Assembly (NCBI GenBank): GCA_040217195.1 | Contig: JAVJNR010000009.1 | Span: forward strand, 160,001 to 224,000 | Length of the DNA stretch: 64,000 bases | Origin: Leptospiraceae bacterium | GTDB taxonomy: Bacteria; Spirochaetota; Leptospiria; Leptospirales; Leptonemataceae | Direction of reading: 5' to 3' | Shown: positions 36,919 to 45,722 of the stretch, in pieces | Position numbering within the stretch: position 1 is the first letter of the stretch | Layout: every line of letters starts with the position of its first letter | Translations under genes and position numbers: made by a program | Notes under the pieces: model-generated | Database searches by the model: none | Told to the model about the DNA's origin: nothing | Seen by the model: the letters and a program-made list of their open reading frames with translations, nothing else

Positions 36919-38007
36919 ATGTCATTTCGCAGCCGCGGCACAGCCTTCCTCTCCCATCCAGTGTATAACCTGTTCTCGGTGGCACTGACTTTTACCGGTA
37001 TTCTTCTATTATTAGGTACTGCCGTTGCAGACTTGAAATTAAGCACGGCCCAGTTGCTCAAGCATGCAGATATGCTCCTTTTGAGCCTCTTCTTTCTGGA
37101 AACACTGCTACGGATTATCTTTCAAAGAGGTCATTATGCACGCAGTTCCTTTGTGCTCGATGCCTGGGCCTTGCTTCCGCTTCCAATTGTATTTGGACTA
37201 AACATAGCCGCAGATGGGCCTGCAGACTATCCGCCAGGGTTATTATTACTGGAAGGTGGCCGGTTTTTGCGACTTGTGCCTGCTCTAAAATATTTCAGGC
37301 AGCAAAAGCAGGCTGGACTGAGGCCGGATTCATCGAGCACTCTGGACGGTCTGTCCCTGCGAACATCGCTGGTTGCATTTTTATTCCTATTTCTTGGAGG
37401 CCTGGCAACCAGTCATCTACACTCCAGGATGATTGAAAGCGAAACCAAGGTTAGAACGGAAACAGTTAAGAAATATGCCCAGGCCGAAGGCATTCAAAGG
37501 CTGCCATTTCTGATCCCGGAATGGATTATAGGCGTAGAAAAAGCAGGCTCAGACGGTGGTTTTGAAATCTATAATGTGCCCAAAGAGAAAATCAGCGAAG
37601 GCGATGAAGTAACCTATCGGTATGAGCGAGACTTCCTCTATTTACCCGGTCCAAATCCAGGAGAAGGCATCTATCTCAATTTGAAAGATCTACACAGAAG
37701 ACAGAAACTTCTGGAACTAATGATTCTAATTACCGGATTTGTCATGATTTCCGCTCTATTACTCACCAATAATACCTTCCTTATCCGAAAAGTCATTCGA
37801 CCGGTGGACCATGCAAGACGCGTGGCCCAGCTACGAATGGCAGGTGAGGAAATTCAGGATGAGCAGAAGGTTCCGGAAAACGAAGTGGGCCAGTACATAC
37901 TGGCTGCAAACGAACTCTACCAGGAACTTAGAGCACCGGCCATCAAACAAGATTCCACTGACAGCCGATCCGGCTGCCGGCTCCAGAAGCTATCGAATGG
38001 AGATTAG
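36919..38007 (+). CDS. Membrane protein with ion-transport (voltage-sensor-like) N-terminus and HAMP-like C-terminus
   Basis: FFLETLLRI, LDAWALLP, GRFLRLVPALKYFR; further TMs; VIRPV...NEVG HAMP pattern. Confidence 0.55.
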   Translation: MSFRSRGTAFLSHPVYNLFSVALTFTGILLLLGTAVADLKLSTAQLLKHADMLLLSLFFLETLLRIIFQRGHYARSSFVLDAWALLPLPIVFGLNIAADGPADYPPGLLLLEGGRFLRLVPALKYFRQQKQAGLRPDSSSTLDGLSLRTSLVAFLFLFLGGLATSHLHSRMIESETKVRTETVKKYAQAEGIQRLPFLIPEWIIGVEKAGSDGGFEIYNVPKEKISEGDEVTYRYERDFLYLPGPNPGEGIYLNLKDLHRRQKLLELMILITGFVMISALLLTNNTFLIRKVIRPVDHARRVAQLRMAGEEIQDEQKVPENEVGQYILAANELYQELRAPAIKQDSTDSRSGCRLQKLSNGD

Positions 38008-40521
38008 AGCCGGCACAATACCATCGCCCTTTTCATGGAACCCCAGAGATTTGGCAACAACGGATAATGCTGCATCGTTATCAGAGGCCTTCTCACAGCA
38101 ACCTGGCTGGTAGGATGAAATGAGAGAATCCCCGGGAACGATCTTGCCTGCCTCGGCCGAAACCCGGACCGAAGCTATGCCAAAAAAGGCTACCAGCTCC
38201 ATCCCTTCCGGTTTCTGTAAGCCGCTTCGATTATGAACCTCCGGAAGGTAATCCACCGGCGGGTTCAATATCATCGCAGCTTTTTCCACAATAACTCCAA
38301 TCACTCGACGACTGGCTTTCTGCGAACATCGAGCCAGAACCCCAGACTCATCTGTGGCAACCAGGACATCACCAATCCCCAGAACTTCATTCTGTCGAAC
38401 TGGCATGAAAGCAGCCACCGGAGCCTGCAGGCTTTCTCCGCTTTTGCCGGCAAAGATGGTGCCAGAGAATCGACTGAGCCCCTTAACCCATAAACCCAGG
38501 TCAGAAACCGGAAATCCCCGGTCATCATGTCCGCCGGCTATCAAAGAATAAAAACTTTCGGAAAGGAAGCGTCCGCCAGGACCGGAACCGGCTGCACCCC
38601 GGACCCCCTCCCCTTTTCTGGACAGACCCAGAAGGCCGGACTGTTCCCCATAGCCAAGCACGCCGTCACCCTCGGAACGGCCGGTAACACCGGATCCATC
38701 GCTCTTATTGACACCCTGCACTGGAGCATGCTCAACCGGAGGAGGCGAAACACTGTCATAGGATTTACCCATGGTGGACTCGATGCGAATCGTACCCGTA
38801 TGGCTGGAAAAATCATGCTCTCTGGCGGCATAATCATGCTCATGCTCCAGGGGCTTGCGCGAATCACTGAGTCGGGGATCCGTGGACTGAACCACATGAC
38901 CGGAAAGCACAGCTCCTTCCGGGGCCAGCTTTACAATTCCAGAATGATCCGATGTAGCCTGCTTGAGTCGTGCGTCCGACCCCTGCACCGCCACACCTTT
39001 CCTGGCCTCTCCATCGGATGCAAGTTCCACAATACCTGGAGTCTCTTCAGATGCCAGACGTAGCCTGGGATCACTTCCCTGAACCGCTGTTTCAGCCTCT
39101 GCTTCCCCGGCACGGGCAAATCGCATAATCCCCCTGGTTTCCGTTGTTGCATCCCGAAGCCGCGGATCGTTTCCCTGCACAGCTTCCGATGGCCGGTTCC
39201 CTCCTCCGGGAGAAAGACGCACGATACCGGAGGCCTTTTCCGAAGCATATTTTAGCCTGGAGTCATTACCCTGAACCACAACATTGGCTCTGTCTTCGCC
39301 ATCCTCGGCCAGCTCCACCAGACCAGGTCTTTCATCGGTGGCCGGTTTCAGACGATCATCATCGGCCTGAACTGCATGCAGGCCGCGTTCCTCTCCATTT
39401 CTGGCCAGTCGAACAATACCGGCCAGGTCCTCACTGGCAGGACGGAGCCTTCGGTCACTGCCCTGAACGGCAACCCCTTCACGATCCTCCCCATCAGATG
39501 CAAGCTCTACAATACCTTTGAAGTCTGTGGTAGCATCTCGCAACCTTCGATCACTACCCTGAATGACCACACCATCTCTGGCTTCTCCATCCAGCGCCAG
39601 CCGGACTATTCCGGACCTTAAAACGGAAGCATGCGGTATGGGCTCGGCGGGCAGAGTTCGATCCTGTTTCTCTACCGGGTCGGCGGAGGCAAATAGCTCC
39701 AGTTCGATGATCTGGGAAAGGAACTTCCCTTCTCTGGTTCGGGCACTTTCAAAGATTGTTATTTGAATGTAGCGTATATTTAAAGGAAGGAAACGCCATC
39801 TGTACCATTGCCCTGGCTCCGCAAGAAAGCCACTTTCTTCCATTAAGTGGTGCCAGGAAATATTGTCCTCACTATAGGAGATGTGGAACCCCTCGGGAAA
39901 AAGAGGATCCTCCCCGTCACGAGACAGAAGGCGAATTTCGCTTACCCGGTTTACGGAGCCCAGGTCCAGACGAATAAACTCATCCTCCTGACGGCTTCTC
40001 AGGGGACTTGACCAGCCATAATCAGTTCTCTGATCGATCAGGTTATCTTTTACCCACAGCCGGTCCAGCTCTCCAGACACCTGTACATCCACAATGCCGG
40101 AAACCATCACCCGGAAACTGCCGAAGGCTGAGATGTAGCCTTCTTCAGACTTCTTGTCTCGAATAAACAGAAACTTAATATAACGAGCTGTAATAAGAGG
40201 AAAGTTCCAGGTCATTACCTCCTTTCCTTCATGCCGAAAATCGGATTCTCTCAGAATAGGCTCCCAGACCTGACCGTCCTGAGAGATTTCGAACCTGAAA
40301 TTATCAGGAAATGCATTCTTATAATCCGGATGTTTCTCCAGCACGATTTGATTAAAGAAGATATCGTCGGTGAAGCTACCCATACAGGCCACGAGTCCGG
40401 GGATCTCGGATGCTTCGCTTACCCAGGATTTAACCCGACCCTCTTCAATCTCGCCGGTGCCTGGACCGGAGAAATCCTGGAACGGATAAATCTGCGGATG
40501 AGAAATTCGAATAGGTTTCAT
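37990..40521 (-). CDS. Discoidin (F5/8 type C) domain protein with eight ~32-aa phage tail-fibre-like repeats
   Basis: Two discoidin-like domains (FEISQDGQVW, IRLDLGS...YSEDNISW); repeats A(S/T)xxxxGIVxLAxxGE...VQGxDxRL; 4-bp overlap with rep stop. Confidence 0.8.
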   Translation of the reverse strand: MKPIRISHPQIYPFQDFSGPGTGEIEEGRVKSWVSEASEIPGLVACMGSFTDDIFFNQIVLEKHPDYKNAFPDNFRFEISQDGQVWEPILRESDFRHEGKEVMTWNFPLITARYIKFLFIRDKKSEEGYISAFGSFRVMVSGIVDVQVSGELDRLWVKDNLIDQRTDYGWSSPLRSRQEDEFIRLDLGSVNRVSEIRLLSRDGEDPLFPEGFHISYSEDNISWHHLMEESGFLAEPGQWYRWRFLPLNIRYIQITIFESARTREGKFLSQIIELELFASADPVEKQDRTLPAEPIPHASVLRSGIVRLALDGEARDGVVIQGSDRRLRDATTDFKGIVELASDGEDREGVAVQGSDRRLRPASEDLAGIVRLARNGEERGLHAVQADDDRLKPATDERPGLVELAEDGEDRANVVVQGNDSRLKYASEKASGIVRLSPGGGNRPSEAVQGNDPRLRDATTETRGIMRFARAGEAEAETAVQGSDPRLRLASEETPGIVELASDGEARKGVAVQGSDARLKQATSDHSGIVKLAPEGAVLSGHVVQSTDPRLSDSRKPLEHEHDYAAREHDFSSHTGTIRIESTMGKSYDSVSPPPVEHAPVQGVNKSDGSGVTGRSEGDGVLGYGEQSGLLGLSRKGEGVRGAAGSGPGGRFLSESFYSLIAGGHDDRGFPVSDLGLWVKGLSRFSGTIFAGKSGESLQAPVAAFMPVRQNEVLGIGDVLVATDESGVLARCSQKASRRVIGVIVEKAAMILNPPVDYLPEVHNRSGLQKPEGMELVAFFGIASVRVSAEAGKIVPGDSLISSYQPGCCEKASDNDAALSVVAKSLGFHEKGDGIVPALISIR

Positions 40522-41315
40522 ATCAGTTGATTCCAGTGTCTGTGGCGCTCCGTAGTAACGCCAGGTCTCTGTTCAGGTTCAAATAGAATTTGGTCGCATA
40601 TCTGCAATAGAATCGTCTTCAGGTACTCGGGAACTTCATCGCTAAGGCGAATCCAACCATTCTGCTCTCCCAGAAAGCATCCCTGCAACAATCCAAGGCT
40701 GCCGTCGGACATCTTCCCCCGGAGCTCATCCAGAACCTGATTCCAGGCCATTGGCCCAGTCCCTTGTTCGCGGGACAGGATTTTTTGAACATTCTCATTG
40801 GTGGGCGGGATTCCAGCCATCAAGCATTCGTTTCTGGCCTTGTCCCACTCCCCGGGTCTAGGTACTGGCTCTGATTGATTTTGTATGGATATATGGATCT
40901 GGTTGTACGCACCCTGCTCGGCTGCGCCTCTGAGAGTGCCCGGGTCGACGGGCTGAGGGGTCCTCTCGGCTTCCCGAGGGAGTTGTCTGTTCGCACCTCT
41001 CGGGGGTGCTCCATCGCCCTGCAGAGAGTCGAAAATGAAGTGGTATGTACTGTTTGTTCGGCCAGAACCCGTTCTGACTATGATCAGTCCGGCCTCCTGA
41101 AGCTCTTCTCGGGCTCTTCTAAGACTGGATTTCTGCTTAAAGCCAGTCAGTTCTAGTAGTCGGTTGGAGCCCGGAAAAACAGGCGAAAAATGCCGGTCCG
41201 AAAAACTTAAAAGGACCGGGTACAACGCTCTTGCGGCCGGGGATAGCCCGGCCCAGAGTCCAGATCGTATAATATCTGAAACAAACTTAAAATATTGCAG
41301 CTCATCTGCTGACAT
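40518..41315 (-). CDS. Winged-HTH replication initiator (Rep) candidate
   Basis: LSPAARALYPVL...FPGSNRLLELTG...SLRRAREELQEAGLI, an HTH_36-like fold typical of phage/plasmid initiators; downstream of parAB. Confidence 0.7.
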   Translation of the reverse strand: MSADELQYFKFVSDIIRSGLWAGLSPAARALYPVLLSFSDRHFSPVFPGSNRLLELTGFKQKSSLRRAREELQEAGLIIVRTGSGRTNSTYHFIFDSLQGDGAPPRGANRQLPREAERTPQPVDPGTLRGAAEQGAYNQIHISIQNQSEPVPRPGEWDKARNECLMAGIPPTNENVQKILSREQGTGPMAWNQVLDELRGKMSDGSLGLLQGCFLGEQNGWIRLSDEVPEYLKTILLQICDQILFEPEQRPGVTTERHRHWNQLI

Positions 41316-41357
41316 CTCGCCACCTCATCTGCTTGATGAGAGGCTCCCAAAAAAAGG

Positions 41358-41385
41358 TTGACATGCTCTATAATCAGGTCATTAT
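41358..41385 (+). promoter_or_regulatory. Antisense sigma70 promoter in rep leader
   Basis: TTGACA(41358-63)-N16-CATTAT(41380-85). Confidence 0.55.
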
Positions 41386-41390
41386 GTCGC

Positions 41391-41449
41391 CAACCATTCA
41401 TTCCCAATGGAAGCCCCAGCCCCTCAGATTCCTGAGGGGTATTTTTTTT
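41391..41449 (+). ncRNA. Putative counter-transcribed (antisense) RNA of rep, ~59 nt
   Basis: Own promoter; small stem ccatt/aatgg; terminator cccctcag-attc-ctgagggg followed by T8, oriented opposite to parB and rep. Confidence 0.6.
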
Positions 41450-41482
41450 GCGCTTTTATATTTTTATGAGACGCGCGACTGG

Positions 41483-41510
41483 ATTATGTCGCATAACCTA
41501 CATCTGTCAA
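41483..41510 (-). promoter_or_regulatory. Sigma70 promoter for rep
   Basis: Minus strand TTGACA(41510-05)-N16-CATAAT(41488-83), overlapped by TTATGTCGCATAA. Confidence 0.6.
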
Positions 41511-41527
41511 GTACTTTAAAGTACGTA

Positions 41528-42379
41528 TCAATTCGGGGTGTGCTGGATATTCTTCTTTAGCCAGTTCTCCAGGCTGCGTGCAGAGCGCGCATCCCCGGCA
41601 TCGATTGTGATGACGCTGCCCTTGCGGGTTATGGTTCGCTCACTGGTGCTGGCTGGTTTTTGCGGTGAAACGTGGCTGGATTTCTTGCTTTCGCTGGAGG
41701 GTTGAGTCTCCGAGTCGGCTTCTTTCTGTTCATCGGAAAAGAACTCTCTTGCGGAGCGGACTGTGCGGATAGACCCGGTTTCGTAGGCCGATAGAAACTC
41801 ATTGAATCGATTCTTTCTGTGGGCCTGGACGGCCTGGATGAGGAGGTTCTTATTTTCCAGCCCCGCTTCTCTGCAGCGACGAGCCGCATCCGCTGGAAGG
41901 CCCGCGATTCCCAGGATCTCTGTAATGTAATTTCTTGATTTCCCTACAAGCTGAGCCAGTTCGGCATCGGAGTAGCTTTCCTGTTGCTTCAACCTGAGGA
42001 GCGCTTCCGCCTCTTCTTGAGCGGAAAGATTTTCTCGCTGAAGGTTCTCAATAATAGCAATTCGGTAATAATCCCGCTCTTCCCGGGAAATAATTCTGCA
42101 TTCTGCTTCTTTCCAGCCCAGTCGGTTCAGGGCATGAAATCGGCGTTCTCCGGCAATGATTCGGTACCCCTCCCCTGCTCTGGTTACAACAATGGGAGAC
42201 AGGAGGCCGTCTTTCTTGATGCTTTCTGCCAGCTCGTCGACCCCAAGGGTTCGGTCCTTACGGGGCTGCTCCTCGGAAGGATGGATGCGGTCCAGTCGGA
42301 TCCGGGTTATGGTGCCATCCAGGGACTCGGCCTGAAAAATATCGGCCAGGGTACCCAGCTTTTTATGTTTCGAGCTCAC
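41528..42379 (-). CDS. parB: ParB/Spo0J partition protein
   Basis: QPRK, LAESIKKDGLLSPI, IAGERRFHA, IENLQRENL, HTH; probable GTG start at 42379. Confidence 0.95.
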   Translation of the reverse strand: MSSKHKKLGTLADIFQAESLDGTITRIRLDRIHPSEEQPRKDRTLGVDELAESIKKDGLLSPIVVTRAGEGYRIIAGERRFHALNRLGWKEAECRIISREERDYYRIAIIENLQRENLSAQEEAEALLRLKQQESYSDAELAQLVGKSRNYITEILGIAGLPADAARRCREAGLENKNLLIQAVQAHRKNRFNEFLSAYETGSIRTVRSAREFFSDEQKEADSETQPSSESKKSSHVSPQKPASTSERTITRKGSVITIDAGDARSARSLENWLKKNIQHTPN

Positions 42380-43118
42380 GTAGAAGTTCCTCCAGGAAGT
42401 CCGAGTATTCTTTAGCCTGCTTGGATTCTGGAGCATAGTCAAAAATGCTCTTTCTTGCCAGGTGACTTTCTCCAATGGCAACGCCGGCGCTGATGTTGGA
42501 TTCGAATACATGAAAGAACTGGGATACCACTGGAAGGATGGTTTTGGTCAGCACGGTCTTGGCCTTGATCTGGGTTACTACGGCGCCGGCCACTTGCAAC
42601 TCCGGGTTGATTCGGCGCTTGATGCTGTTGATTGTCGTTTGAAGGCCGGTCATTCCATCAATGGAGAATTTCTCGGCCTGGGCCGGAACCACAACGTGAG
42701 TGGCGGCCACCAGGGCATTTACCGTGAAGATCGAAAGGCTTGGCGGACAATCGATGATAATGAATTCATAGTCTCCTACAGATTGCAGCGCATCCCGCAG
42801 GATGTACGGTGCATCCACGTTCTGGCCCATGGACTCAACCTCGGCCAGAGTGATTTTGGATGGAGCGAGCCAGAGATTTGGCTCGCCAGTTTCAATCACT
42901 GCATCCTTCAGTGCCCGGCCCTGGCTGAAAACATTGTACAGGGTCACATCCAGGCTGTCCGGATTTGCGAATAATCCGGTAGTGTTGGCCTGCGGATCCA
43001 TATCCACCAGCAACGTTTTCTTTTCTTTCTTTGCGAGCCCAAAGGCCAGGTTAATGGCGGTGGTGGTTTTGCCTTCTCCGCCTTTCTGGTTTGTGATCGC
43101 TATGATTCTGGTTTTCAC
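42363..43118 (-). CDS. parA: ParA/Soj ATPase
   Basis: NQKGGEGKTTT, DMDPQAN, IIDCPPSL; probable GTG start at 43118. Confidence 0.96.
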   Translation of the reverse strand: MKTRIIAITNQKGGEGKTTTAINLAFGLAKKEKKTLLVDMDPQANTTGLFANPDSLDVTLYNVFSQGRALKDAVIETGEPNLWLAPSKITLAEVESMGQNVDAPYILRDALQSVGDYEFIIIDCPPSLSIFTVNALVAATHVVVPAQAEKFSIDGMTGLQTTINSIKRRINPELQVAGAVVTQIKAKTVLTKTILPVVSQFFHVFESNISAGVAIGESHLARKSIFDYAPESKQAKEYSDFLEELLRELET

Positions 43119-43201
43119 AATTAATGCGACATAATAATAAGGAAGCATTTTTTCAAGAAACTTTTAATTGCGGATGAAAAAATCGCAAAACTCGGCTGAG
43201 T

Positions 43202-43421
43202 TGTCGGACATCCGACTATTTGGACTCCTGGTCTCGTTCCGTTTTCTGTCTCGGGCGCCGGTCGCCCAGGCCCGAGTTCCAGTAGTTGGGAGTCGCTATT
43301 TGTCGGACGTCCGACCTGTCCTGGCTGGCGGTGCCGATTCGTCTGCCCGGAGGCATGGCGCAGGCCGGGTCCGATCATGAATTAGGGCTCCTGAGGTTTT
43401 GAGGGTGTCGGATGTCCGACA
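43202..43421. repeat. Three 16-bp palindromes, parS-like centromere
   Basis: tGTCGGACATCCGACt 43202, tGTCGGACGTCCGACc 43301, tGTCGGATGTCCGACa 43406. Confidence 0.75.
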
Positions 43422-43479: not shown

Positions 43480-44748
43480 ATGGCTGAGCAGGAATTGCTA
43501 AATAGGCTTCTAGGCGGATCGTATCGCTCGGGCTTTCTTTCGGCCCTGGGGGATCAGTACAGTTATGTGCTCTTTGGCAGGCGCTCGGGGGCTTTTGCCC
43601 CGGTTCAGGGGCTCCCTGGTGCCGAGGCTGGAAAGCGCTATGGCTTTCTCCAGTCTGATCCGGCTCGGTGGGATCAGGCCCGCCGTCAGGGGTATCAGAC
43701 GATTCCCGGAAGCCTTGTGGGTCTTCCTGGTCGGGATGTTTTCGTGGGCGTTCAGGGCGGTGCCAGCGTGGAGCATCTTCTGGTGGTGGATGCCCCGGAA
43801 GGGACTCTGCCTTCGCCTGAGTTTTTGCAGCTGCTGTTTCTGGCGGAGCTGGGAGCTCAAGAAGGAGGAGCGGACCCGGTGGATCTGCCTGTCTGGCTTG
43901 AGGATTCCCTGTCATATTTAATGCGAGTTCCATCTCCGATTCTCATTCTGTCCGAGCCTGGCTCTGCCGCCGAGCTCCTGGTGCAGGCGCTTGTGGATGG
44001 CCGCTTTGGCATGGACGATACTGTGTTTTTCCATCCCGGCCGTCTGTCCGAAGAGGTGCAGCTCAGAGAATTTTTCGGGGACCAGGCAAGCGCCCGCCTG
44101 GGGGATGCCTCGGTGGTGCCTGTGCTGGAGCGCGGTGCCCGGGCCATCATTATCGATGAGGTGTCTGATCTTTCCCAGTCCATGCAATTGAGAATACTGG
44201 CCCTGCTCTCGGATCCGGATAGCCCTGTGTCCTGGATCTTTACCAGCTCCAGGGATCTGGGGGCCATGGCTGAGGCCGGTCGTTTCCAGCCAGCTCTGCT
44301 GCGCGCGATTCGGGAAGGTGAGCTGTTGCTTGCTCCGGTGCGAAACCAGCGAGACAGAATTCCAGAGGAAGCGGAGAGGTTGCTTCGGATGTTTCGGCGG
44401 CAGTTTGGTCGCAATATCACTGTGACCGGGGAGGCCCTGGAGGCTCTGCGAGGGTACGATTGGCCAGGAAACTGGCAGGAGTTTCGGGACACTTTGAAAT
44501 CTGCATTTCTTTTATGTCCTGGGTCCGAGCTCAGACGGGTGGATCTGCAATTCGGCAACTGGAACCAGGGGCAGGCCGATGATCTGAATCTTCGCCACCG
44601 TACCGCGGAGCTGGAGAAATCTCTGTTATTGCAGGCCTATGCATTACATGGTGGCAATCAGGTGCAGATGGCCCGGGCGCTGGGGATCTCCCGGGGGTCT
44701 CTTCAATACAGAATGAATAAGCTTGGCCTTGGTGGAAGAGAAGAGTGA
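43480..44748 (+). CDS. Degenerate sigma54-activator-like AAA+ protein with Fis-type HTH
   Basis: IIDEV, QLRIL, YDWPGN, GNQVQMARALGISRGSLQYRM; Walker A and GAFTGA degenerate. Confidence 0.8.
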   Translation: MAEQELLNRLLGGSYRSGFLSALGDQYSYVLFGRRSGAFAPVQGLPGAEAGKRYGFLQSDPARWDQARRQGYQTIPGSLVGLPGRDVFVGVQGGASVEHLLVVDAPEGTLPSPEFLQLLFLAELGAQEGGADPVDLPVWLEDSLSYLMRVPSPILILSEPGSAAELLVQALVDGRFGMDDTVFFHPGRLSEEVQLREFFGDQASARLGDASVVPVLERGARAIIIDEVSDLSQSMQLRILALLSDPDSPVSWIFTSSRDLGAMAEAGRFQPALLRAIREGELLLAPVRNQRDRIPEEAERLLRMFRRQFGRNITVTGEALEALRGYDWPGNWQEFRDTLKSAFLLCPGSELRRVDLQFGNWNQGQADDLNLRHRTAELEKSLLLQAYALHGGNQVQMARALGISRGSLQYRMNKLGLGGREE

Positions 44749-45722
44749 CAGAGCATAAGGAAATGGTGACCCCCGCCGGATTTTCAATCCGCATTTTTAC
44801 GGACCGGGGGGTTTGCAATGTCTCCCGAGATGGTCGCCTTGAATTTCCGCAGGGTGGGGCGGCATCCTCCGATCAGCAGATCCCCGGGGTGATATTCATT
44901 GGTAAGTCCTTCGAGCCTTCCCTGAATCCGGATCAGTACCTCCTGGTTCCCAATCGGTCCAGAAGGCTTATCATTCCCTATCGCCTGGGGGATAGCATGG
45001 GGCGGCATATTCTATTGCCCTGTGGTTCCGCAGCAGACCAGTTTCCAATTGTGGTGGCATACTTCGCCTCGGCCCGTCAGCTAATTGATGCTGGAACACT
45101 CTATCGCGGAGCCCCCTGGCGTTATGTGGTCCTGGAGCCTCAAGTGGCGAGAATCGATTTGATGAGCCTGAAGGTTCATCGGCCGGACCTCAAAACATTT
45201 CTTTTAAAAGACCAGTCAGGTGAGGCGGCCGAGCCGTCCCCTGCTGCAGAGGAGAAGGTTCGGGCCACGGATATTGTAAATCAGGGTGGGGCAGGGGAGC
45301 ATGCTTCGAACCCGGTTTTCCAGGCCAGGCTCCATCTGCGAAACCTCGCCCTGGATCGAATGGCCGAGCTTCCCGTTCGTTTTAATCTTAAATCCGAGGA
45401 AGTGGAGTTTATACGAACCTTTCTGGGCATCATGATTCAAAATGAACGCGAAAATCCGGAGCTGGACCGAGTCAAAGAAAGACTTCAGCGTCTGGATGAG
45501 TTCTATCGCCTGCTATCTGTGGCTCTCCAGGATTCCGACGAATTCGACCGCGCTCTGGAAAAGGGCCTGGATAAGCCCCTGGCCACCGAACTTTTGCCGG
45601 TGGTGCGCAATATGCGATCTTTGAGCTCGGACAGGGAAAGGCAAATCCGGTACTGGGAATGGGAATACCGGCTGAATGAGCTGGCGGGTGGCCCGGAATC
45701 GGAGAAAAACCCGCCCAGCTGA
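44745..45722 (+). CDS. Hypothetical protein
   Basis: 325-aa ORF, GTGA overlap with upstream gene. Confidence 0.7.
   Translation: MTEHKEMVTPAGFSIRIFTDRGVCNVSRDGRLEFPQGGAASSDQQIPGVIFIGKSFEPSLNPDQYLLVPNRSRRLIIPYRLGDSMGRHILLPCGSAADQFPIVVAYFASARQLIDAGTLYRGAPWRYVVLEPQVARIDLMSLKVHRPDLKTFLLKDQSGEAAEPSPAAEEKVRATDIVNQGGAGEHASNPVFQARLHLRNLALDRMAELPVRFNLKSEEVEFIRTFLGIMIQNERENPELDRVKERLQRLDEFYRLLSVALQDSDEFDRALEKGLDKPLATELLPVVRNMRSLSSDRERQIRYWEWEYRLNELAGGPESEKNPPS

Follow-up and report, generated by a model that had tools for sequence, protein, structure and literature searches.

The replication control of secondary chromosomes outside the Proteobacteria is largely unexplored, and the locus described here raises the question of how one such replicon, in a member of the Leptospirales, is maintained and how its copy number might be set. 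It lies in a stretch of 64,000 nucleotides (nt) of DNA, here called the window, from contig JAVJNR010000009.1 (C8) of a Leptospiraceae bacterium, where parA, parB and a gene for a winged-helix protein, rep, share one orientation on the minus strand at 40518-43421. An initial annotation of the window had pointed to these three genes, to palindromes upstream of parA and to an antisense promoter and terminator between parB and rep, and had read them as the origin of a chromid which has converged on repABC-style control around an initiator other than RepC. We consider it probable that the DNA at 40.5-43.4 kb is a module which maintains a 234-kb Leptospirales chromid from close to its origin, and in which an antisense RNA restrains the putative initiator Rep. 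As such, it would be a concrete model for the Leptospirales chromid, having a private centromere sequence, a separately promoted rep with a long leader, and a conserved counter-transcript.

The chromid and its partition genes

The two ends of C8 overlap, its last 141 bp being a copy of its first 141 bp, and closing the contig makes a circle of 234,289 bp. Cumulative GC (guanine and cytosine) skew, calculated in 200-bp steps over the whole contig, has its minimum at C8 201,600, which is position 41,600 of the window. The curve is flat within about 1-2 kb of this minimum (within the window alone it lies at 40-42 kb) and cumulative G-C reaches its maximum near 60-65 kb. The GC content of C8 is 0.494, compared to 0.482-0.486 for the large contigs, and the only match to thrS above the family cut-off in the genome is on C8, which also carries pyk, htpG, argB, alr, folE, rph, queA, ahcY, metF and others (from a scan of 140 of 176 chosen open reading frames (ORFs), at E <= 1e-40). 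As it is a circular 234-kb replicon with a plasmid-type parAB-rep locus at its skew minimum and a single-copy thrS, C8 is a chromid, and it shows the three properties by which chromids are defined, namely a plasmid-type replication and partition locus, a core gene found nowhere else and a chromosome-like GC content. The turn in skew noted in the initial annotation was confirmed and the chromid status that it put forward was supported, and its statement that genes point away from the locus held for most of them, the exceptions being a plus-strand ORF at 36919-38007 to the left and minus-strand ORFs at 48.3-49.4 kb to the right; this strand bias is clear locally and weak contig-wide.

The first gene of the module, parA (42363-43118, minus strand), encodes a Walker-type partition ATPase of about 251 amino acids (AAA_31 in Pfam at 1e-51) which is 60-93% identical among relatives. 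Its frame is open back to an ATG at 43148, but the GTG at 43118 is likely to be the true start, because a locus from the same genus (L020) lacks the upstream ATG and because a predicted -35 box lies upstream of that ATG. This box (TTGAAA, 43156-43151) belongs to a putative parA promoter at 43124-43156 on the minus strand, in which the 12-mer ATTATGTCGCAT (43135-43124) covers the -10 and start region, and a matching arrangement was found in 13 of the 17 loci from the window's own family. The product of parB (41528-42379, minus strand) has ParB_N (1.6e-17) and HTH_ParB domains in Pfam and scores 110 bits against TIGR00180, for which the cut-off is 58; it would be about 283 amino acids long from the GTG at 42379, which is likely to be its true start, overlapping the end of parA by 17 nt, as the relatives' frames hold stop codons upstream of that point (in the window the frame is open back to 42511). 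A short Walker-type ParA is therefore accompanied by a chromosomal-type ParB with both its ParB_N and helix-turn-helix (HTH) domains, as is characteristic of ParABS systems.

Upstream of parA the 14-bp palindrome GTCGGAYRTCCGAC occurs at three parS-like sites with spacings of 99 and 105 bp: the site nearest to parA (GTCGGACATCCGAC, 43203-43216), a perfect 14-mer which becomes a 16-mer when its flanks are counted (GTCGGACGTCCGAC, 43302-43315) and the site farthest from parA (GTCGGATGTCCGAC, 43407-43420). With one mismatch allowed, 4 matches are present in the window where 0.11 +/- 0.31 are expected (0 of 100 shuffles reached 4), and the exact pattern has 3 copies in the whole 4.61-Mb genome, all of them at this locus. 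The canonical site GTTTCACGTGAAAC was found in the genome on contigs C2 and C5 only, the C2 copy lying 1.3 kb from the chromosomal parB, with dnaA about 37 kb away on the same contig. The same palindrome precedes parA in 20/20 loci compared (the window counted) and in the Turneriella parva plasmid pTURPA.01, with 2-4 copies beside parAB wherever the ParB orthologue occurs, and so the sites are both close to parAB and specific to the replicon, again as in ParABS systems. Counted with its flanks, the 16-mer keeps the TGT..ACGT..ACA outer frame of the canonical parS, with a different inner triplet. We suggest that ParB would bind these three replicon-specific 16-bp palindromes and, together with ParA, segregate the chromid, and that from the same sites it would probably also repress parAB.

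Of 41 genomes sampled within the order (the window's own counted), 37 have a Rep homologue, which in complete Leptospira-type genomes lies about 2 kb into contig 2. Twenty loci were fetched, of which the twentieth is a 1.7-kb fragment, and all 19 with enough flank have the order parA-parB-rep; the relatives appear to have replicons of similar size, as their sister contigs measure 184-250 kb in assemblies that are nearly closed. Rep keeps its position after parAB both on chromids and on a 25-kb plasmid, and in L. interrogans the order is parA-parB-HTH followed by a gene for a discoidin-domain protein. According to the parts of Picardeau et al. (2008; PMC2229662) that deal with these replicons, Leptospira chromosome II, p74 and LE1 carry a partition operon with a putative rep downstream, and the p74 region replicates autonomously, so the gene layout was already known; these parts name the genes only, with no mention there of palindromes, an antisense RNA, a leader or the 12-mer. 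Judged from sequence and gene order, the module studied here and the parA-parB-rep region with which Leptospira chromosome II begins are orthologues, and the skew-defined origin of chromosome II lies in the same place. The present replicon differs from chromosome II in belonging to a different family, in its GC content and in having a size of 234 kb. The initial annotation was therefore right about the shared orientation of parA, parB and the winged-helix gene (all on the minus strand and supported by Pfam), about the three palindromes, which are the only copies in the genome, and about the likeness to Leptospira chromosome II, and the synteny to which it had looked is found throughout these relatives.

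The predicted antisense RNA and leader of rep

The gap between parB and rep is 212 bp long and contains two near-consensus promoters which face each other, one on each strand. A scan for promoters and terminators over 40.4-43.6 kb gave 4 promoter-like sites (2.2 expected) and 8 terminator-like sites (4.4 expected), and the case for an antisense RNA is therefore one of conservation and not of counts. The antisense promoter (41358-41385, plus strand; TTGACA-16-CATTAT, 10/12 matches, containing ATTATGTCGC) is followed by an intrinsic terminator at 41419-41449, made up of a hairpin (41419-41440) with a 9-bp G+C-rich stem and a 4-nt loop and then of T8. The predicted product is an antisense, or counter-transcribed, RNA of about 58 nt (41388-41449, plus strand, the 5' end probably falling at 41388-41393), comprising the terminator hairpin and, at its 5' end, a stem-loop whose UUCC/GGAA stem is conserved. 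On the minus strand, the predicted rep promoter (41483-41510; TTGACA-16-CATAAT, 11/12 matches) has ATTATGTCGCAT on its opposite strand at 41483-41494 and would give rise to a 5' leader of about 160 nt (41316-41476), of which nt 29-86 or thereabouts are complementary to the antisense RNA. Close to the end of this leader, a hairpin at 41319-41344, partly formed in the minimum free energy fold, may be able to sequester the rep Shine-Dalgarno (SD) sequence (GAGG, 41326-41323), just upstream of the ATG at 41315.

The antisense unit is conserved well beyond this genome. From its -35 TTGAC box to its T-run, it measures 81-105 nt, and 20/20 loci carry it in the gap on the antisense strand, with the TTGAC invariant in all 20 aligned units; a terminator was detected on that strand by the scan in 18/20 loci, and the other two have imperfect stems that are visible by eye. 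On the sense strand of the gap, terminator hits were weak, unconserved and limited to 6 loci, with no match to the antisense terminator. A covariance model (R1) built from 15 antisense units has a single match, of 73 bits, in the window's own genome. Across the class, 97 of 151 genomes (the window's own counted) have one match apiece, including 91/103 from the Leptospira-containing family and 5/13 from the window's own, compared to 0/34 from seven other families. In the alignment used for covariation, which was fitted to the covariance model, 100% of the cells of the terminator helix are paired and 4 of its 6 modelled pairs show compensatory double changes, which 0 of 500 shuffles reached. The antisense RNA is predicted to fold into two stem-loops (-20.1 kcal/mol, z -3.7) and the rep leader also has a stable predicted fold (-61 kcal/mol, z -3.0). 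A scan of 40-44 kb against Rfam at E <= 1 gave no family of counter-transcribed RNAs (ctRNAs), its sole row being a chance match to a long non-coding RNA. The promoter and terminator unit noted between parB and rep by the initial annotation was thus recovered in every locus compared, and it has in prediction what defines a ctRNA, that is a small RNA with its own promoter and intrinsic terminator which is fully complementary to the rep leader.

We propose that rep would be transcribed from its own promoter in the gap and that the antisense RNA, made constitutively, would pair through its two stem-loops with the complementary part of the leader, which would lower the synthesis of Rep. The most likely routes would be a refolding of the leader that locks the SD sequence in its hairpin, cleavage or premature ending of the leader, or both, and either route would determine copy number and incompatibility. 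When the leader is folded without constraint, part of the region targeted by the antisense RNA pairs with sequence just 5' of the hairpin that could hold the SD sequence, and when this target was blocked in silico SD accessibility fell in 11/20 loci (5/5 from this genus), was unchanged in 9/20 and was raised in none, so that modelling lends weak support to SD occlusion, which is our leading guess for the route. An attenuator in the leader (a hairpin followed by U7) was also considered as the general mechanism and dropped, being confined to this genus.

Transcription start sites (TSSs) mapped in L. interrogans by differential RNA sequencing are listed in the supplementary tables of Zhukova et al. 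(2017), and their coordinates were placed by sequence on the annotated L. interrogans record (locus L042). Table S4 of that study has an 'orphan' minus-strand TSS at 727700 which is preceded by the orthologous TTGACA promoter, and it is at this antisense TSS that the match of our covariance model in L. interrogans (L042 1171-1230, minus strand) begins. At the orthologous rep promoter, an 'orphan' sense TSS at 727451 falls inside the reverse 12-mer and, with a coverage of 34, is the strongest among the TSS rows examined for the locus. The tables also give a sense small RNA (sRNA), 'sRNA_37_8' (727514-727656), the end of which coincides with the hairpin, as well as sense 5' ends that lie inside the antisense overlap, at 727651/727654 and 727681 (about L042 1182-1212). 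The 5' ends at 727651-727681 are called primary or secondary TSSs of the rep-like gene by Zhukova et al. (2017), but they may be products of duplex processing and not true starts, and they would agree equally well with a leader that is cleaved, or ends early, inside the duplex. A primary TSS is listed for parA as well, and the sequence upstream of it carries a palindrome over the -10 region. As the main text of the study has no occurrence of 'parB' or 'replication', the antisense element appears to have been recorded there and not interpreted.

The elements that we consider new are the palindromes, the antisense RNA and the rep leader, while ParABS partition and antisense control of rep are of known kinds. 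The initial annotation had supposed that these cis elements were undescribed, and this stands in so far as our literature search found no paper describing the palindromes, the antisense RNA or the rep leader in Leptospira, and none in which the promoter 12-mer is named; it does not stand for the antisense TSS, which was already an 'orphan' row in the 2017 supplement. The Leptospira passages of a 2026 marker-frequency and Hi-C study and of a 2018 preprint on replicon classification do not contain these elements, and there was no hit for parB, replication or partition in the main text of a 2026 paper on L. borgpetersenii sRNAs. The same elements are present in Leptospira chromosome II, where a published antisense TSS stands uninterpreted.

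Rep and the alternative readings of the locus

Rep (40518-41315, minus strand), the putative initiator, is a protein of 265 amino acids, encoded by a single-copy gene in this genome. Its winged helix is N-terminal and is followed by a linker rich in Pro and Gly, by the conserved motif YNQIHISI and by an alpha/beta domain at the C terminus. An alignment of 19 orthologues shows these four parts, of which the winged helix is conserved and the N..I.I core of YNQIHISI is invariant. The sole Pfam match (at E <= 0.01) is to HTH_36 (residues 23-78, 3.5e-8), with none to RepA_N or Rep_3, and residues 21-149 match phrog_270, 'replication initiation protein', at 4.9e-9. The AlphaFold model of Rep has a pLDDT (predicted local distance difference test score) of 70.7, and in Foldseek the staphylococcal plasmid initiators 4pql, 4pt7 and 5kbj come at or near the top of its matches; these matches are weak (E 3e-3 to 1.4e-2; 4pql_B at 2.9e-3 and 4pt7_B at 4.7e-3) and their rows are mixed with those of CodY and MarR-type regulators. 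The VIA-align comparison with a further initiator, 4pta_D, gave a Z of 8.3, tied with unrelated winged helices, and a Rep profile run against the PDB sequences had a best E of 0.047. At E <= 0.001 the profile matches 338 proteins, and among the best 120 of these the named ones are from Leptospira, Leptonema and Leptospiraceae, with one 'Spirochaetaceae bacterium' and one 'bacterium'. The position of its gene, the PHROG match and the precedent of p74 and LE1 suggest that Rep is the replication initiator, which would open a nearby origin.

Several results weigh against an antisense-restrained initiator at this place. Rep belongs to no curated initiator family, as Pfam gives HTH_36 only and NCBIfam nothing; its fold matches are generic winged helices, with no Foldseek row at E <= 0.001 and with VIA-align Z scores of about 8 tied among ORC, TFIIE, CodY and RepA_N proteins, over residues 6-99 (the N-domain) only; a tblastn search with Rep against phages gave no match; and the best 120 of its 338 profile matches are all annotated as 'helix-turn-helix domain-containing' or 'hypothetical'. 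No iterons, DnaA-box cluster or marked AT-rich stretch were found to mark an origin (there is 1 DnaA box with one mismatch in 4 kb, and the GC content of the parB-rep gap is 0.44), the region has no repeat family besides the palindromes and the 12-mer, and the 12-mer seen at three of its promoters is not private to the replicon and hence no Rep operator. As for the RNA, the covariance model with strict filters missed 8/13 genomes of the window's own family, and it missed locus L036, in which the unit was seen by eye and by regular expression only; the 5' helix (helix 1) shows no covariation in the model-fitted alignment; the sRNA table of Zhukova et al. (2017) has, among its entries for this locus, no antisense sRNA between parB and the rep-like gene, for which a TSS alone is given; and the SD-occlusion model is backed in silico in only 11 of the 20 loci, the other 9 showing no change.

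Alternatively, Rep could be an ordinary transcription factor, for example a repressor of parAB, of itself or of the discoidin-domain gene that overlaps it, in which case the chromid would be initiated by DnaA, by a DnaA paralogue on contig C5 or by an unrecognised factor, and the antisense RNA would tune a regulator. This would fit with the generic HTH family that is Rep's only Pfam match, with the ties between its fold and winged helices of the CodY, MarR and TFIIE types and with the non-committal database names of its homologues; in addition, the rep stop codon overlaps the start of the next gene, a neighbour conserved in L. interrogans and T. parva, and a second dnaA-like gene is present in the genome. 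We nevertheless regard a purely regulatory Rep as unlikely, since the protein matches a PHROG of replication initiation proteins, no other plasmid-type initiator is found at the skew minimum, a DnaA-box cluster is lacking at the locus and the parAB-HTH arrangement persists throughout the order, even on a 25-kb plasmid. Leptospira p74 and LE1 share the layout, and the p74 region is able to replicate autonomously in the account of Picardeau et al. (2008; PMC2229662), while antisense control of a leader is treated as a hallmark of rep genes in the sections of a review that concern it (PMC6090056).

It might also be that the antisense transcript is real and does not throttle rep, acting instead as an insulator or roadblock between parAB and rep, as a trans-acting sRNA or as a positive element; in this last form, which applies to this genus, the RNA would pair with the 5' arm of the leader hairpin that precedes U7 and so prevent premature termination. 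The leader in this genus does have an 8-bp hairpin and then U7 just past the antisense target, and the 5' arm of this hairpin is complementary to the antisense RNA at its 5' end; the two antisense stem-loops are separated by a conserved single-stranded stretch that could serve for pairing in trans; and blocking the target has no modelled effect on the SD sequence in 9/20 loci. Against this, the hairpin with its U-run is restricted to this genus (at this place the sense strand of other genera has A-runs), and the element is a single-copy one which invariably faces the rep leader in antisense. In L. interrogans the overlap contains a break in sense coverage as well as sense 5' ends, and coverage of rep is lower than that of the leader, which fits with down-regulation. 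Antisense RNAs facing other rep leaders also act negatively. Those of repB-repC gaps are given a negative role in the corresponding part of the review (PMC6090056), and the chance of a transcript without a restraining effect on rep seems to us a small one. A very slight chance can be given to the palindromes being operators of another regulator, such as the divergently encoded Fis-type product, rather than centromere sites: they do sit in the intergenic region common to parA and the divergent sigma54-activator-like gene, and one of them covers the -10 region of parA in L. interrogans, but they share the outer frame of canonical parS, they are unique to this replicon and 2-4 of them adjoin parAB wherever the ParB orthologue is present. 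ParB sites commonly double as centromere and operator. Of the readings weighed here, a ParABS module with an antisense-restrained initiator is the one that we retain.

Related systems, the 12-mer and the neighbouring genes

In the review's treatment of repABC replicons (PMC6090056), the ctRNA (RepE / IncA / inc-alpha) is about 50-60 nt long, has a terminator stem-loop and is encoded in the repB-repC gap. The present locus resembles these replicons, as described there, in its order of partition ATPase, ParB-type protein and initiator, in its gap-encoded counter-transcript and parS sites, and in combining replication and partition in one locus, an arrangement that is used by chromids. Its proteins, in contrast, are not those of repABC: ParA scores 93.7 bits against the RepA model TIGR03453 (cut-off 348.45), ParB scores 29.9 bits against the RepB model TIGR03454 (cut-off 201.5) and Rep has no match to RepC in Pfam (E <= 0.01) or NCBIfam. 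The failure of all three with the RepA, RepB and RepC models, in a layout that mirrors repABC, indicates convergence, as the initial annotation had proposed, and makes the locus an analogue of repABC and not a member; likewise, the ctRNA encoded on the opposite strand before the initiator is an analogue, having no ctRNA homology in Rfam. Unlike repC, which is served by promoters upstream of repA, rep here would have its own strong promoter in the gap, with read-through from parAB possible, and whereas the repABC origin is inside repC, the origin site here is predicted only to be near the locus; the phylum is also different. The same 2018 review distinguishes, where it classifies chromids, two types, iteron and repABC, and Leptospira appears there simply as an early chromid example. 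If our reading is true, chromid copy control would have a third solution, reached by convergence, and the incompatibility of Leptospira replicons with one another would be explained; the locus would also provide parts (parS, rep with its leader, and the antisense RNA) for stable low-copy vectors in saprophytic Leptospira.

The antisense control of Gram-positive plasmids, as in pSK41-type RepA_N replicons (RNAI), pT181 and Inc18, likewise uses a small constitutive stem-loop RNA against the rep leader, and the RepA_N initiators 4pql, 4pt7, 5kbj and 4pta are among the best structural neighbours of the Rep N-domain, weakly and tied with unrelated winged helices. The differences are that Rep has no membership of a sequence family, that no second repressor resembling CopR is found nearby and that the gene is linked to a chromosomal-type parAB. 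Replicon-specific parS variants, known from Burkholderia cenocepacia and from Vibrio cholerae (parS2), are also similar in that every replicon is served by a separate ParAB pair and by a palindrome that the other replicons lack; here, canonical parS occurs on main-chromosome contigs and the variant palindrome only on the chromid. The site sequence differs from that of B. cenocepacia or V. cholerae parS2, and the three sites predicted here all lie within about 220 bp beside parA.

A 10-12-mer, ATTATGTC[GA]C(AT), covers the core of the antisense, rep and parA promoters (41381-41390, 41483-41494 and 43124-43135 in the window) and recurs at the equivalent promoter places in relatives. The form ATTATGTCGCAT has 18 copies in the genome where about 0.6 are expected, and 21/30 copies of ATTATGTC[GA]CAT are outside any ORF of at least 100 amino acids, in the 7.8% of the genome that lies outside such ORFs. 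Arrays of the 12-mer with periods of 30-40 bp occur in other intergenic regions, beside dnaX, gcvH/gcvP and rpsD, and its further sites in this genome include C3:167638-167746, C4:333226-333573, C10:730675-731018, C1:567760-567841 and C5:325144. It is enriched over a reversed-pattern control in 10/10 genomes of the order that were tested, among them three where no rep homologue was found (G024, 19 vs 0; G008, 4 vs 0; G020, 4 vs 1). A private operator or iteron of Rep was rejected as an explanation, given this genome-wide distribution and the enrichment in genomes without a rep homologue, and a DnaA box was rejected too, there being no cluster near dnaA on C2; we suspect that the 12-mer is the site of a host factor. 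One copy, on C5, lies about 217 bp upstream of a second DnaA-like gene (C5:323659-324927, minus strand), the product of which has Bac_DnaA and Bac_DnaA_C domains and scores 148.7 bits against TIGR00362, below the cut-off.

A wider proposal can be made only tentatively, and taken as a whole we think it rather doubtful: that copy number and incompatibility of the second chromosome are determined by the antisense RNA across the Leptospira and Leptonema families, pathogenic Leptospira among them; that it belongs to an independent and ancient reinvention of repABC around an unrelated winged-helix initiator; and that the 12-mer ATTATGTCNCAT may be the site of a global factor, which may couple replication and segregation of the chromid to the cell cycle. 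Such a factor, if there is one, would be a functional counterpart of CcrM/CtrA or of crtS-type coupling in proteobacterial chromids.

In one genus of the Leptospira-containing family (G040), the rep homologue (G040:C2:1186153-1186473) is found about 1.19 Mb into a contig of more than 1.3 Mb. This genome is of 3.4 Mb in 4 contigs and is very rich in the 12-mer (69 copies), the covariance model finds no antisense RNA in it, and this may be a fusion or a second replicon of far greater size. The 81,963-bp contig C9 (GC 0.531) of the window's own genome carries a ParB-like/HTH_3 gene, DNA methyltransferases and a transposase-type HTH, and is probably a plasmid or phage-like element. Its ParB-like locus was considered as a related module and rejected, as it has different neighbours and the 12 kb examined contain no palindrome, no 12-mer and no match to the antisense-RNA model.

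Downstream of rep, a gene for an 843-amino-acid protein with a discoidin (F5/8 type C) domain (37990-40521, minus strand) starts 4 nt before the end of rep, overlapping it. A discoidin-domain gene directly follows the rep-like gene in L. interrogans chromosome II, and one follows it with one small ORF between in the T. parva plasmid; it is thus a conserved neighbour of rep and is possibly co-transcribed with it. On the other side, a sigma54-activator-like gene (43480-44748, plus strand) is divergent from parA, its product having AAA_lid_14, a Fis-type HTH_8 and a weak Sigma54_activ_2 match; its Walker A and GAFTGA motifs look degenerate against the consensus. It is followed by an ORF of 325 amino acids with no family match (44745-45722, plus strand), which is divergent from parA too. 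Both genes recur beside parA in T. parva pTURPA.01, whereas in L. interrogans a Fis-family regulator is found next to parA, and the pair may belong to the origin module.

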